64,000 bases of DNA from an uncultured Spirochaetota bacterium (lineage in GTDB: Bacteria; Spirochaetota; Spirochaetia; SZUA-6; Fen-1364), in assembly GCA_963745235.1 (NCBI GenBank), contig CAVUXE010000044.1, forward strand, positions 1-64,000, read 5' to 3'. Positions 4,159 to 63,816 of this stretch are shown here, piece after piece; positions within the stretch are counted from its first letter, which is position 1; every line of letters starts with the position of its first letter. Position numbers and translations under genes: made by a program. The notes beneath the pieces were generated by a model. The model was given only the letters and a program-made list of their open reading frames with translations. It did not search any database and was not told where the DNA came from.

Positions 4159-4627
4159 CAGGGGTGTCCTTCCCCCCGCATCATTCTCAGCGCATGCTCC
4201 ATGACCGGTCCCACCACCTTCATGCAAAGGCGGACGGCTTTCAGCGAGCCGGGAAAGTTCACCACGATGGTGCTGCCCTTCATGCCCGCCACGCCGCGGG
4301 ACAGCACGGCGGCCGGGGTCTCCGCGTAGGATTGCGCCCGCAGGCATTCGGAAATCCCCGGCAGCTCTCTCTCGATGAAGCGCCGCGTTGTCTCGGGGGT
4401 GACGTCCCGGGGGATATGCCGGTTCCCCCCGTCGTGAGGATGAAGTCCGCGCCCGCGGAGGCCTGCAGGGCGGCCAGGATGTCGTCAGGCTCATCCGGGA
4501 CAACGCGGCGCGTCACCGCGGCGTCGGCGAACCTGCTTTTCACCTCTTTTTCAATCTCCGGGCCGGAAAGGTCCTCGTATTCCCCTCTGGACGCCCGGTC
4601 AGAGACAGTAATGACAACGACTTTCAA
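4158..4627 (-). CDS. mog: Molybdopterin adenylyltransferase MogA/MoaB (frameshift ~4410)
   Basis: VITVSDRASRGEYEDLSGP...TTGGTGISP, continuing RDVTPE...SRGVAG...VNFPGS in another frame. Confidence 0.9.
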
Positions 4628-59527: not shown

Positions 59528-59941
59528 GTGAGGTCCTGCACTCTTTTGCTGGATGATGGGCTGCAAGGCGCCGCGCGGTGCGTCTCCTGGGCGCTGCATT
59601 GCGAGGTGACAGTTGTGGACTCGGAGCCTGCGTGGTCGCACCAGGACAGGCGGATGGTCCAGATCGACATGCCGGATTTCCTCTATCGGATCCTGGAGGA
59701 GTTCAGTTCTCTCAATGGCGCCTCGGTGGAGGCGCTCCTGCGCACCTGGATCGAGGAGCACGCAGGCGAGTCCGTGAGCGAAGAGGGACGCAAGATCCAG
59801 GAACGCTGCCGACTCATCACGGAATGGCTGGACCTGGGGTTCTCGGGAAAGCAACCGGACCTGAAGTACTTCGCGCAAAGGCTTGCTTCCGCACAGCCGG
59901 CTATCCGTCAGCCGCCGCTCCCCGACTCGATGGCTGGGTAG
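59528..59941 (+). CDS. Hypothetical protein with a possible ribbon-helix-helix motif (start uncertain)
   Basis: MVQIDMPDFLYRILEEFSSLNGASVEALLRTWIEE; the last 2 codons and the stop are donated by the intron. Confidence 0.5.
   Translation: MRSCTLLLDDGLQGAARCVSWALHCEVTVVDSEPAWSHQDRRMVQIDMPDFLYRILEEFSSLNGASVEALLRTWIEEHAGESVSEEGRKIQERCRLITEWLDLGFSGKQPDLKYFAQRLASAQPAIRQPPLPDSMAG
59908..59932 (-). CDS. 3' exon of the C45 peptidase gene
   Basis: Splicing restores ...HLGSY-IESGSGG-stop in frame. Confidence 0.7.
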
Positions 59942-61951
59942 CTCTGGGCGATCCCTCGCCCAGAGCCCCCACGGACCCGTACGTGCGCGATTCGACGCAT
60001 ACGGTTCTTCGGGCCATAGTTTCACTGCTTAACAAGAGTGCGCTATCCGAGCTGCAGGGAGTGGATACCTCTGGAGCAGTTGCAGAAAACGCTCCCAGGG
60101 CATGTATTGCCCGCGACTGCGACGCATGAGCCACTTACGCCACGCTCTTTTGACTTCGTAGAAGAAGCTGCTGATCCAGTGCGAGTTTCCAGTTATCCCG
60201 TAGTACGCGTAGTGTCCGTTGAGCTTCCATGTGAGCATACGTTGTTGATCCTTAAGCGGTAGATGGCGATTACGCCTACACCACTCACAGGTACTCTTCA
60301 GCGCCCGAGTAAAGCGACTCGGTTCCGTCTTTCGCTTCACGACCCACGCCCCTTTTCGACTCCGCCCCCAGTAGTGTGTGAAGCCCAGAAAATTGAACTT
60401 CGCCCACCGAGGTGGTTCAACCGTCCCTCCCTCGCGCTTCTGAGGCTTGTCGAAACATATCAACCGAGTTTTCTCGGGATGAATGGTGAGGCCATATTTG
60501 CCAAATCGCTTCGGCAGCACGTCCATCACCCGCTCGGCGTCCTCTTTGCGCGCAAACACCAGTACCTCGTCATCCGCAAACCGAATCAGGAACGCATCAC
60601 CCTTCAGGCGCGGCTTCACCACCTCTGCAAACCATCTGTCCAGCACATCGTGCAGGTAGATGTTGCTTAAGATTGGTGAAATCACAGCGCCCTGTGGAGT
60701 CCCCCGCTCAGGGTAGCTTACCCCTCCCTCCTCCAGTACTCCAGCATTCAGCCATTTCCCGATCAGACGAAGGAGCACCCCGTCACACACCCGCCTCTTG
60801 AGGATCTCTCTAAGGTGGCCTTTGTCGAGAGTGTCGAAAATTTTCGTATGTCAAGATCAATTATCCACCCGCCACCCATCTTCATCAGCCCGTCCCGAAG
60901 TGCCCGCAACGCATCATGGGCTGACCGCCCTGGCCGAAATCCATACGAGCAGTCCAAAAACTCCTGCTCGTACAGCGGTTCCAGCACCATCTGCACTGCA
61001 CGTTGCAGCACCTTGTCTTCGAAGGAGGTAATACCGATCGGACGTGTTTCACCTTTCGTGCCCTTCGGTATATACACGCGCTTAACAGGAGGAGCGACAT
61101 ACGTTCCCGCTTTCGCCCTCTCCAGTAGGCTCCTGAGGTTACCCCCAAGATCCTTTGCGTATTCCTCGGCTGTCTGTCCGTCCACTCCCACCGCCGCGTC
61201 CTTGCGCGTGCGGAGGTAAGCTTCGTACAGCCATCGCAGGTCGATGTGATGCGCCAGCGACGTGAAACTCACCTCGGGATGAATCCTCGCGAGTTCCGTT
61301 ATCCGCCGTTGTTTCGTTGACACGTCTGTGGATTCCATCGCATCCTCCGTGTGTCCCACCGACAGCTCTATGACCCGACGCCTCCCTTCCCTCCACGGGG
61401 TTCCTGCTGGGTTTGGTTCCCCCGCTTCAGCGGTACTGTGAAGGCGCTACGACTTCTCGTTGACCGTTTCGCTTCGCTTCGTTTCCTTCGCTCGGCAATA
61501 CCATTTGCAGCCTGCGTCTTTGTTCTTCGCTCCGCATGGGCATCATGACGCTTCTGCCCATGGGCCAGGGGTTCATTCTCTGGTGACCCTCGTCCAGTTT
61601 CCGAAGGCATGGAATCAACGAGATCTCCCAAGTTCCTGGGTGACCCTTATTCGTATTTGCCCTGTTCTCCGACCCCGGCGGGACCTCCACGTCGGGCCAT
61701 TACGACGCTTCGGTGCTGTCCCCGCATAGTTAACTGCGAAGACTCCCGCATGGCTGCTATCGAGGCTCAATCGCACGGCTTTTACGATCGTTGTCTACGC
61801 TTCATGGCCACAGTCGCCTGTGGTCACGCAAGACTCACTTCCAGCTGCTGGCCAAGCTTTGCTGTGTTGGATTGGTTACCAACAGGGTCACGATGAAAGG
61901 TTTCCGCCTACATGCTGAGCATCCTCCTTTCCCAAGCTTTGCTTGGCGCGA
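59933..61951 (-). mobile_element. Group II intron (2019 nt, RT without endonuclease domain)
   Basis: Domain V at 59974-60007; domain VI at 59933-59970 with a bulged A at -7; EBS1 UAACUA (61727-61732) pairs with IBS1 TAGTTA (61952-61957); lower GC than the flanks. Confidence 0.93.
60029..61338 (-). CDS. ltrA: Group II intron reverse transcriptase/maturase (frameshift ~60840)
   Basis: AVGVDG, RVYIPK, RPIGI, SYGFRPGRSAH, GTPQG, RFADD, FLGF, and domain X (GHYAYYG); no HNH domain. Confidence 0.95.
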
Positions 61952-63816
61952 TAACTACCCAGGTGCACGGTCACGGGCTTATCTCCATAGTAGCCGTACA
62001 GGCTCGTCATCTTTCGCTTCGTGAGCTCGCACAGGCTGACGCTTCCATGGACCTGGATGTCGGCCCATGACCTCTCCCCGCCCGGGTTGTAGAAGTCCGG
62101 GAACCTGCCGTTGGGCCGCAGAAAATTGATGAGGTCCCAGGCGGTTTCCTCGGTGACCCCGGAAGGGGAGGCGGCAATGGCATCCAGGATCTCGCGGCTC
62201 AGCTCGTCGTAGCGCCACTGGATCTCGTTCAGATTGCCTCCCGCCAGGAGCGCTATCCACTCGTTCATTGCGGTGAGCCGGATTTCCGGCGAGATGGCAT
62301 GGTTGGTCGCCACGAGGACGTCCGGGCGGTGCTGCCGCTGAGGCGCAAAGTAGAACGGACCGGGGCAGTTCTTCTCCTTCCAGCTTGCGTTGATGTAGCC
62401 GCGCTCAGCGAAATCCACTTTCGTGAAGTCGGCCTCCTGGTGCAGGGCCTGCACGTCCTTGTGCAGGAGTGCCCAGAGCCATCTCCCCCTGAACAGGTCG
62501 ATGATGAGCCCTGCCAGGTCCCCCAGGAAGTCAGGAATCCGCGCGAACCAGTCCCCTTCAAAGGCGCGCCACAACCGCTCGTTCCATCGCGTAATGTATT
62601 CGTCGGGAAGGGCGTAGTGGTTTCCGCGCGCAAGTGCTCCCATGATCGGACGGGGGGTCCGGTACCTGCGGCCCATCCGGCGGATGAACGAAAGGGTCGG
62701 CAGGCGCCTGCGGTAATGCCAGGGAACCCAGGTGAAATAGGGGAACGGCTCCCAGGGACCGAGCTTCCTGCCGGCTTCCACGACATACGCGTTTCCGTCT
62801 CCATCAGCAACCGGGTACAGCCAGGTCACGCCGCGCTGGGCGTGAGCGATCCGATCCACCACCTGGGATGAGGTTTCACAGTACTCGAGGCAGTCACGCA
62901 CCAGGGGCAGGGAGTTGAACCCGGGTCTGCGGGCTGAACAGAACATGCTGGGAAGCATATTGACGCCCATCGCGACCCCCGCGGAGTTCATCCCCGTTAT
63001 CGAGCCGACAATGCCGGGAGCGGTCTGGCTGACGAAGGGCAGGCGCTGTTTTCCCCGCCGCGCCACAGGCCTCTGCACGATGAGGCACGCGGTCTCCTGG
63101 AAGATGTTCGCCGTCGGGAACATGAAGTCCCGGCCGAAGAAGCACGCGCCGCCCGCCGCGACGCCTCCGATGAAGAATGCGTTGCACCCGATGGGCGTCT
63201 TCAACATCCCGGGTTTGAACCCCCTGCGCGCGAAAAGCGCTCCGGAGTACACGTGGGCAAGAATCGCGTCGATTCCGAAGTTCAAAGTTATGAGGTCCTC
63301 CAGCGTGACCGCCGTGTCCGTGCGGGAGGTGCCTGGCCCCGTGCCCGGGCCGGAGGAAGCCGAGGCGCGGCCCGACCCCGGCTCAGAGGAAGCGTATCCG
63401 TCGACAATTCCCTGGAGCTCTTCCTTGTATTCCTCGGGGATGTCCGGCAGAACGGCATGAGTGGCGCCCGTGGCGATGTGCGTCATGAGGTTCCTGAGGT
63501 CAGAGGAAAGGCCCCGCGCCCGCACCTCGTGGGTGTCGAAAAAAGCGAACACGACCTTCTGCAGGAACTCATGGGTCATCCGGGAGATCTCCTGCGGGGC
63601 GAGGCGGCCGAGAAGGAAGCCCATCTGGTAATTGTCGCCCTCGAGGTAGAAGGCGCGCTTCGCGCGGGACGACCTTCCGATTCTCGCGCTTACGTGCTCG
63701 GCTGCCGCGCCGAGGCAGCCGTCCTTTTCCGCGGTCTGCGTCACCACAAAGCCGTCGTGGCGGAAAGCGTTCTCTATCCGCGCCCGCCTCTGAGGAATCG
63801 GCTCGAAAAATGGCAT
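61952..63816 (-). CDS. C45 family Ntn-hydrolase/acyltransferase, 5' exon
   Basis: Autocleavage site G|CNAF, FGRDFMF, GMNSAGVAMG. The unspliced frame runs into the intron to 61888. Confidence 0.8.

Follow-up and report, generated by a model that had tools for sequence, protein, structure and literature searches.

A probable recently mobile group II intron with two natural compensating swaps at its ends and active site in an uncultured Spirochaetota bacterium

A group II intron occupies positions 59933-61951 on the minus strand of the window, the whole 64,000-nt stretch of DNA analysed here (contig CAVUXE010000044.1). It is, in all likelihood, a genuine and recently mobile member of an endonuclease-less, IIB-like bacterial lineage with two natural compensating swaps in its active site and ends. 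The first proposed swap puts U and G at the first and penultimate nucleotides, which elsewhere make a G-A contact needed for exon ligation. The second would replace the middle G of the domain V triad by A and the J2/3 nucleotide stacking on it, G, by U. Both covariations are seen across related introns. An initial annotation, which omitted the strand, had proposed this interval with a UCGCG start and an AGC end; three copies, a joined contig and intron-less orthologues agree with it. The element and its ribozyme parts are:

59933-61951 (minus): whole group II intron, copy A, 2019 nt; homology among the three genome copies starts and stops here
61663-61875 (minus): domain I core, RF02005, E 1e-40, model positions 1-225 of 225
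61947-61951 (minus): 5′ terminal pentamer UCGCG (canonical GUGYG)
61727-61732 (minus): EBS1, UAACUA, in a hairpin loop of domain I; pairs 6/6 with IBS1
61952-61957 (minus): IBS1, the last six bases of the 5′ exon; common to copies A and C, which differ farther upstream
61670 (minus): EBS3, G, intron position 282; pairs with the C of IBS3
59932 (minus): IBS3, C, the base that opens the 3′ exon; copies B and C are followed by it as well
61448-61450 (minus): J2/3 triplet G-U-A; gamma G at 61450, second nucleotide U at 61449 (canonical G), third A at 61448
59974-60007 (minus): domain V, 34 nt, aligned base for base to the RF00029 consensus
59933-59973 (minus): J5/6 and domain VI, with the bulged branch A at 59939 and the 3′ end AGC

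Two Rfam families match the ribozyme. RF02005 (group-II-D1D4-6), at 61663-61875 on the minus strand, scores 139.6 bits against a cut-off of 49, and RF00029 (domains V/VI), at 59933-60009 on the minus strand, scores 38.7 bits, slightly below its cut-off of 40. The D1D4-6 family is a motif family and is not known to map to any named intron class. The type recurs across the genus; RF02005 was matched in 17 of the 31 genomes searched, the window's own counted. Domain V is a hairpin of about 34 nt that carries a two-base bulge. Its triad, aligned to the Rfam consensus, reads AAC (60006-60004) where the consensus has AGC, as annotated initially, and is neither AGC nor CGC; the middle A of the triad stands opposite G at 59976. 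The bulged A is, as had been stated, the seventh base from the 3′ end (59939, position -7), and that end is AGC at 59935-59933 with the penultimate G at 59934. The unusual U at the second J2/3 nucleotide (61449) had been missed. The intron ends, UCGCG...GC, depart from the boundary consensus 5′ GUGYG...AY 3′, which is a consensus and not a mechanistic requirement, the partner positions having changed together.

A check for other copies and intron-less alleles, suggested with the initial annotation, found both. The genome has three copies (A, in the window, B and C) of 2019-2021 nt, at least 99.8% alike, which differ at only five alignment columns, have identical ends and sit in differing flanks. 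A few of the bases at -9 to -14, looked at for an EBS2/IBS2 pairing, are common to copies A and C. Contigs of three further public runs reach the same intron ends (the strain of origin of public-run contigs is indistinguishable), and loose contig ends of other intron copies break exactly at 59932 in three runs. At such loose ends in run X5, one intron copy has G instead of C at the IBS3 position. One contig of run X1 joins 59932 to 61952, an exact empty site: exactly 2019 nt are skipped, 81 nt lie on the shorter side and the cut is unambiguous. It could be an intron-less allele, or a spliced transcript if the library were RNA, the library type 'DNA?' being a guess. Among relatives, the site of intron L026 is uninterrupted in L023/L024. 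From the one RNA run, X20, came just one identical contig of 203 nt, within the ORF and possibly carried over from DNA, and fragments of other introns; none of these is evidence of splicing. Logan contigs are incapable of showing lariats or transcript ends.

Sequencing or assembly errors in a canonical GUGCG...AC intron with an AGC triad might be blamed for the odd ends and triad, and the assembly does have at least one doubtful homopolymer length within the intron. The chance of this is practically negligible: the three genome copies carry the same ends and triad, the contigs of X1, X2 and X5 agree with them letter for letter at the ends and throughout domain V, with GTGCG/AC ends in none, and the same states occur in dozens of introns of other phyla and in finished rhizobial plasmids.

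The true 5′ or 3′ splice site might also lie elsewhere, UCGCG and AGC being merely the limits of the mobile DNA. Shifted splice sites have precedents in fungal rRNA IIB1 introns, C.te.I1 and class B introns with a 3′ extension (excerpts of PMC4424553). According to the same excerpts those introns likewise break GUGYG...AY at the exon junctions but keep the GUGYG or AY motif internally, whereas here the motif itself is altered and its position is usual. We consider a shift very improbable given the exon pairings. The perfect EBS1/IBS1 pairing of the initial annotation was recovered, UAACUA pairing 6/6 with the six bases directly upstream of the 5′ end, and across relatives the EBS1 loop varies in step with these six bases: a 6/6 match (G-U allowed) is found in 57 of 71 introns at offset 0, and in 14 to 46 of the 71 at offsets -4 to +4. 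In 16 of 17 introns the EBS3 column can form a Watson-Crick pair with the base directly downstream of the 3′ end (runner-up column, 9 of 17), as expected of IIB-type introns, in which EBS3 in domain I, and not delta beside EBS1, reads the +1 exon base. Of 75 relatives, 72 have gamma paired with the proposed last base and the other three are probably miscalls, the branch A is at -7, and both the empty site and the reading frame of the orthologues fit the proposed cut only. The boundaries are fixed by the copies, the joined contig, the intron-less loci and the EBS1-IBS1, EBS3-IBS3 and gamma-gamma′ covariation. The flanking genes are:

61952-63816 (minus): 5′ exon, the 621 host-gene codons that precede the intron, with a weak Pfam AAT/PF03417 match
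59908-59932 (minus): 3′ exon, the rest of the host gene; finishes a Tyr codon, which seven codons and a stop follow
59528-59941 (plus): convergent ORF of 137 aa, its last three codons (two residues and the stop) within the intron's 3′ end

The intron is in sense orientation, seven codons ahead of the host-gene stop. Both flanking genes had been said to be restored when the intron is removed. This is right for the minus-strand host gene, where deleting 59933-61951 restores a Tyr codon (TA + C), seven further codons and the stop; the convergent plus-strand ORF, for which no Pfam family was found, merely changes its stop codon, which moves two codons earlier. Of the 21 genomes of the genus that were searched, 17, its own included, have an orthologue of the host gene. 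In the intron-less orthologues L064, L065 and L066 both exons are adjacent, and the proteins end there with Tyr or Phe plus 2 to 7 residues.

The covariation sample comprised 118 related introns, with subsets according to the state called. States were called by our own regular expressions and hand curation. Eight of the 47 genome-collection loci, being partial or disrupted (L033, L040, L044, L046, L047, L049, L050 and L051), are out of the state table, L024 and L035 were excluded from counts as near-identical to L023, and the 3′ ends of L085 and L136 were left uncalled because of an extended domain VI. The recurrence of the non-canonical nucleotides in a lineage, as had been proposed, was found among these introns; UCGCG itself begins 16 of the 70 with both pentamer and triad called.

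At the ends, the first and penultimate nucleotides are G/A in 29 introns, U/G in 30 and mixed in 0 (n = 59). At the active site, the second J2/3 nucleotide and the triad are U/AAC in 32 introns, G/AGC in 49, C/AAC in 4, C/AGC in 2, A/AGC in 1 and A/AAC in 1 (n = 89), so that 81 of 89 fall in the two main states of J2/3 and triad middle nucleotide and eight in other combinations. Counted by triad, 32 of the 37 AAC introns have J2/3 U and 49 of the 52 AGC introns have J2/3 G; C is found with either, and the two A calls are probably miscalls. The base facing the middle nucleotide of the triad is a Watson-Crick partner in 0 of 105 introns, which matches the wobble or mismatch expected at a metal-binding site, and showed no strict covariation with it. 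For intron position 2 (C or U) no partner was seen in domain VI by eye.

The genome-collection sample was first read as a single five-way covariation of the first base, J2/3, the triad, its partner and the penultimate base. We split this set into two pairs because the larger metagenome sample has UUGCG introns with AGC (10 introns) and L111, which has GUGCG with AAC; all four pair combinations exist. Since the two pairs can occur apart, the termini and the triad are not obligatorily linked. The co-variation of terminal and active-site nucleotides that had been suggested at the outset therefore stands for each pair and not for one set.

On a tree of 106 RTs the first base requires 8 changes, of which well-supported branches force at least 3; the corresponding figures are 11 and 4 for the penultimate base, 10 and 3 for the triad, and 11 and 4 for the J2/3 G state. 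The tree was built from the RT protein and not the ribozyme, and its support is modest. Between some well-supported sisters, such as L077 and L114, or L120 and L105/L130, both members of a pair have changed. Tests on independent pairs could draw on no more than 3 and 2 pairs from well-supported branches, with sign test p values of 0.25 and 0.5.

The encoded protein has these features:

60029-61359 (minus): RT/maturase gene, in copy A split into 60763-61359 and 60029-60790; no endonuclease domain
60837-60840 (minus): four consecutive T where copies B and C have five; breaks the RT frame of copy A
60569-60580 (minus): FADD codons, RT block 5

The frameshift of copy A had escaped the initial annotation. 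The extra base is present at the T run in every covering contig of all four public runs compared, and the four-T form is in no public contig. The same T deletion occurs in L008, a 99%-identical intron that is also frameshifted, and copy C carries a different indel; in view of these lesions some copies may be dead. Copy B has an intact 443-aa ORF, which lies in domain IV and matches TIGR04416 with 329.9 bits (cut-off 300, the match running to residue 414) and, as its sole Pfam match, RVT_1 with 133.7 bits; there is no HNH. The nearest solved proteins in a PDB search were IIC-type RTs, GsI-IIC RT and LtrA, and the search gave no structure for this intron lineage.

The FADD motif was correctly noted (codons at 60580-60569), but it does not belong to the pattern of altered nucleotides. 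The first residue of block 5 is F in 36 and Y in 75 relatives (n = 111), and each occurs with either triad (F/AAC 22, Y/AAC 20, F/AGC 9, Y/AGC 49). FADD is linked to neither compensating pair, and PMC3552965 already gives it as the consensus of the 'g2' intron-ORF variety.

The intron had been said to retrohome still, on the grounds that EBS1 matches the present site. What can be upheld is recent mobility, to which three copies at different sites and an empty-site allele point; together with the EBS1-matched insertion sites they are at most indirect signs of lariat self-splicing and retrohoming. The argument from EBS1 falls, as a match to the present site shows only site choice by base pairing, not activity; nor can the claim rest on the protein of copy A, whose RT frame the assembly shows as broken.

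One might instead see in the U...G/AAC lineage a set of decaying, splicing-dead copies, spread passively by recombination, IS elements or trans help from canonical relatives. RT frames are indeed broken in two of the three copies, several copies adjoin IS66 transposase genes, and canonical GUGCG relatives coexist in the same genus. Decay would nevertheless leave unexpected the repeated matched changes of partners, with no mixed state at the ends and few at the active site, and the intact gamma, EBS1 and EBS3 pairing. Passive spread would not be expected to give an EBS1 that in each intron matches its own insertion site. The non-canonical states are moreover conserved with intact ORFs across Spirochaetota, Nitrospirota, Acidobacteriota, Bacteroidota and Alphaproteobacteria, and rhizobia in culture have them on finished plasmids (L155, of the AAC/U type, on pRetMIM1e of Rhizobium etli bv. 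mimosae Mim1; L156 on a plasmid of Bradyrhizobium barranii). We judge decay improbable.

As a recently mobile intron with two compensating swaps, the element would splice and reverse-splice through its rewired ribozyme by the ordinary two-step pathway. Insertion would proceed by EBS1/EBS3-guided reverse splicing followed by cDNA synthesis, presumably with no cleavage of the target since the protein is without an endonuclease domain, and the copies with broken frames would rely on an intact RT supplied by another copy. In the laboratory, model introns with AGC-to-AAC changes are crippled; the probable activity of the AAC form is therefore deduced from how it has spread.

The ribozyme might alternatively be active by another route, with a hydrolytic first step or circles, the altered first nucleotide and triad marking a loss of branching and not an equivalent exchange. 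Introns of the related IIE and IIF lineages splice largely by hydrolysis or form circles in vitro (excerpt of PMC3753933), and G1 and U2 touch the branch helix in a pre-branching complex of known structure (excerpt of PMC10733145), a contact that U1 and C2 could weaken. Yet every relative examined has the bulged A of domain VI at its usual distance, and the compensation at the penultimate base points to a preserved second-step contact; on this evidence we find such a route unlikely.

The intron resembles the endonuclease-less IIB-like introns (classes D, E and F; g1-g4 of Toro and Martinez-Abarca 2013; RmInt1) in its six domains with the ORF in domain IV, its EBS1 and EBS3 recognition, the bulged A of domain VI and a protein of RT and maturase only. 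It differs from them in U1 and a penultimate G for G1 and A, AAC for AGC, and J2/3 G-U-A for (gamma)-G-A; RmInt1 deviates at the 3′ end only, with CC (excerpt of PMC4238363). With g2, whose named members include Mx.xa.I1, Sg.ce.I1, B.th.I3, W.e.I5 and Ma.sp.I2, it shares FADD in place of YADD and the lack of a DNA-binding/endonuclease region after the maturase, a likeness by traits. Hosts of the relatives (Polyangiaceae, Myxococcales, Bacteroidales) are of the kinds named for g2 members.

The lineage also has the architecture of the catalytic triple helix of group II introns and U2/U6 (AGC triad with J2/3 or ACAGAGA): J2/3 nucleotides 2 and 3 lie over triad nucleotides 1 and 2, and a non-Watson-Crick partner stands opposite the middle triad base. 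In the middle layer U stands over A (opposite G, A or C) where the known triple helix has G over G (opposite U or A). In IIC introns the CGC triad is accompanied by a changed third J2/3 base. CGC is the sole natural triad variant named in the excerpted text of a review (PMC4424553). The contact of first and penultimate nucleotides in group II introns was already known (excerpt of PMC4238363), as were the base triples that the J2/3 'GA' makes with the triad (excerpt of PMC6224600). A literature search found no paper on bacterial group II introns that start with UCGCG or UUGCG or have an AAC triad; such boundaries may be listed in the curated bacterial intron database, subscription papers or supplements.

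The Rfam domain V/VI model under-detects introns of this kind, as the score here shows, and boundary profiles built on GUGYG...AY possibly do so too. Tentatively, we go further and suggest that nature may have repeatedly rebuilt two parts of the group II active site usually taken to be invariant, the triad G with its J2/3 partner and the first/penultimate pair, giving fully mobile introns that score below the thresholds of standard models.

In AT-AC (mostly U12-type) spliceosomal introns, the end nucleotides that touch in exon ligation change together. These introns belong to a different machine and change the first and last base, whereas this intron changes the first and penultimate. The likeness is an analogy only; if our suggestion is true, the lineage would be their group II counterpart. 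It offers natural double mutants in which the chemical requirements of both contacts can be tested, and sequence-based, independent support for contacts that until now have been known through crystals and through mutagenesis in one or two model introns. If true, it would give the triple helix's middle layer and the first-penultimate contact their first phylogenetic proof, and by homology it would implicate the spliceosomal active site.

The intron in the window (copy A) is one of three full copies in the genome, on contigs C44 (window), C22 and C78; the two outside the window are called copies B and C here. Features of copy A are as follows.

59933-61951, minus strand: group II intron, 2019 nt, copy A (Rfam and copy comparison)
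61663-61875, minus strand: domain I core (Rfam RF02005, 139.6 bits)
59933-60009, minus strand: domains V/VI (Rfam RF00029, 38.7 bits; family cut-off 40 bits)

The RF00029 score falls just short of the gathering cut-off of 40 bits, so routine annotation would overlook domain V/VI in this AAC-triad lineage.

The three copies differ in only five alignment columns, and their homology runs from UCGCG to AGC. Beyond it, copies A and C have only the six bases of the exon-side pairing site IBS1 in common on the 5′ flank, and all three copies share a single C on the 3′ flank. Public contigs were also aligned to the window. A 378-nt contig of sequencing run X1 joins 59932 to 61952, so that precisely 2019 nt are missing; its shorter side spans 81 nt and the cut is unambiguous. 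The run is labelled ‘DNA?’: a DNA library would make the contig an intron-less allele, an RNA library a spliced transcript. Either way the contig bears out the splice junction named in the initial annotation. Loose ends from other copies stop exactly at 59932 in runs X1, X2 and X5, one of their flanks starting with a different base, and others lie at 61956/61957, past the shared IBS1.

Excision of 59933-61951 completes a Tyr codon in the host gene, followed by seven codons and a stop. Among 11 orthologous loci of the genus, three (L064, L065 and L066) have the exons adjacent without an intron, their genes ending in Tyr or Phe and then 2 to 7 residues; the remaining eight match the 5′ exon only. 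The host gene and a convergent plus-strand ORF of 137 aa, which has no Pfam family, overlap tail to tail at 59908-59941, with the intron within the overlap. The claim that both flanking genes are restored thus holds for the host gene, and is true but trivial for the convergent ORF, where excision merely swaps the stop codon. What the initial annotation observed is confirmed as a whole; its interpretation is supported in part.

The RT/maturase is encoded by a domain IV ORF and has no endonuclease domain. It is intact in copy B (443 aa; TIGR04416, 329.9 bits, cut-off 300; Pfam RVT_1, 133.7 bits) and broken into two frames in copy A as assembled, where a T run has four bases versus five in the other copies; copy C has a different indel. 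The extra base is present in all covering contigs of four public runs, a check of the frameshift limited by the merging of copies and loss of minor variants in such contigs. A locus from another assembly (L008:1909-3927) is identical to copy A throughout the aligned intron columns and shares its one-base homopolymer deletion in the RT gene, either because the allele is real and common to both or because the same assembly error recurred.

Relatives were collected as 47 loci from genome contigs, with the intact RT protein as query, and as 80 loci from metagenome contigs, the top-ranking among 594 confirmed relatives, with an alignment of 16 RTs. In their alignment the EBS1 loop (61732-61727 in copy A) covaries with the six bases 5′ of each intron. 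This is clearer evidence than match counts because the background is high: EBS1 matches 6/6 at the proposed boundary in 57/71 introns (G-U allowed, within 105 nt of domain I), and still in 14 to 46 of the 71 when the boundary is moved by 1 to 4 bases. For EBS3, the alignment column of intron position 282 (window 61670) can form a Watson-Crick pair with the 3′-exon base that directly follows the intron in 16/17 introns, the next best column in 9/17. Gamma, in the J2/3 motif (61450 in copy A), and the final base of the intron as proposed are complementary in 72/75 introns (G-C 51, U-A 15, A-U 4, C-G 1, G-U 1); the three non-pairs stem from doubtful J2/3 calls.

Five positions were called in 118 introns by regular expressions and hand curation, and each position could be read in 78 to 105 introns. 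Two pairs compensate. In pair A, the first and penultimate nucleotides are U/G in 30 introns and G/A in 29, with none mixed (n=59). In pair B, the second J2/3 nucleotide and the domain V triad are U/AAC in 32, G/AGC in 49, C/AAC in 4 and C/AGC in 2 (n=89); two ‘A’ calls in J2/3 (loci L034 and L045) are probably miscalled. The pairs are separable, as observed in the combinations below. Locus L151 combines AAC and J2/3 U with a penultimate A, its 5′ end lying beyond the contig.

Intron 5′ pentamer by triad (n=70)
GUGCG with AGC: 34 introns
UUGCG with AGC: 10 introns
UUGCG with AAC: 8 introns
UCGCG with AAC: 16 introns
UUGUG with AAC: 1 intron
GUGCG with AAC: 1 intron (L111, twintron, hand call)

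C was observed at position 2 only together with AAC. The middle nucleotide of the triad never faces a Watson-Crick partner (0/105), the facing base being A (56) or U (3) for AGC and G (30), A (14) or C (2) for AAC. In the best tree that a quick LG+G4 search gave for 106 RTs, the first base needs 8 changes, the penultimate 11, the triad 10 and the J2/3 G state 11, of which well-supported branches force at least 3, 4, 3 and 4, respectively. Independent pairs all run in the same direction, at numbers too small to reach significance (supported branches give 3 and 2, all branches 8 and 9). Both pairs match experimentally known contacts; the conserved J2/3 ‘GA’ makes base triples with the triad (PMC6224600). 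A layer of U over A may take the place of G over G with similar geometry.

FADD, which the initial annotation had included in the altered set, is real in the copy A RT and lies outside the pattern: F occurs with AAC in 22 and AGC in 9, Y with AAC in 20 and AGC in 49. It is the published consensus of intron-ORF variety g2 in PMC3552965, a source that states the boundaries of its new varieties as defined but ‘not shown’.

Some relatives are nested. L026:1847-3925 is a twintron in which an Acidobacteriota UCGCG...GGA intron interrupts domain VI of another, canonical group II intron; L023/L024 carry this site uninterrupted, with the outer domain VI downstream near 4370-4430. Domain I of L111:59-2950 contains another intron, a span of a few kb holds two or three domain V hairpins in L036 (Nitrospirota) and in L045, and these three loci and L033 hold further nested or adjacent introns. 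Within one genus and one Rfam family, GUGCG (canonical; L052, L054) and UCGCG introns (L055, L057, L058) coexist. A second, different family in the genome of the window (G000) gives three weak RF02005 matches.

C54:154631-154893: RF02005, 38.9 bits
C22:52717-52979: RF02005, 38.9 bits
C99:14689-14951: RF02005, 38.9 bits

Several features speak for a live intron: near-identical copies at different sites, each matching EBS1, the empty-site form in public data, the intact copy B ORF, the conserved pairings and the same intron type across many genomes of the genus (RF02005 matched in 17/31, counting its own, against 0/14 control genomes). The broken frame of copy A, the same deletion in L008 and the other indel in copy C speak against it. 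At L002:715-1461 a DUF222/HNH-endonuclease gene adjoins copy B. Several copies follow an IS66-family transposase gene (Pfam PF03050), starting a few bases past its stop codon, as seen at L003:783-1500 for copy C, in L008 and L055 and at the loose ends at 61956/61957, and the near-identity of this flank across genomes suggests a preferred homing site at that IS end.

In the literature searched we found no bacterial group II intron starting with U or carrying an AAC triad; PMC4238363 notes of databases that ‘some variations have been reported’ and treats the RmInt1 3′ CC as remarkable. The sequences have long been public, since members lie on finished plasmids of cultured bacteria, and a curated intron database may already list these boundaries. 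Rhizobium etli bv. mimosae Mim1 (L155) has UUGCG, J2/3 G-U, AAC and ...GGC, and Bradyrhizobium barranii (L156) is similar; the Halomonas member (L154) is canonical. Aside from its altered nucleotides copy A is an ordinary mobile intron, and the most useful outcome is the two natural compensations, which are directly testable in a cultured, harmless host.
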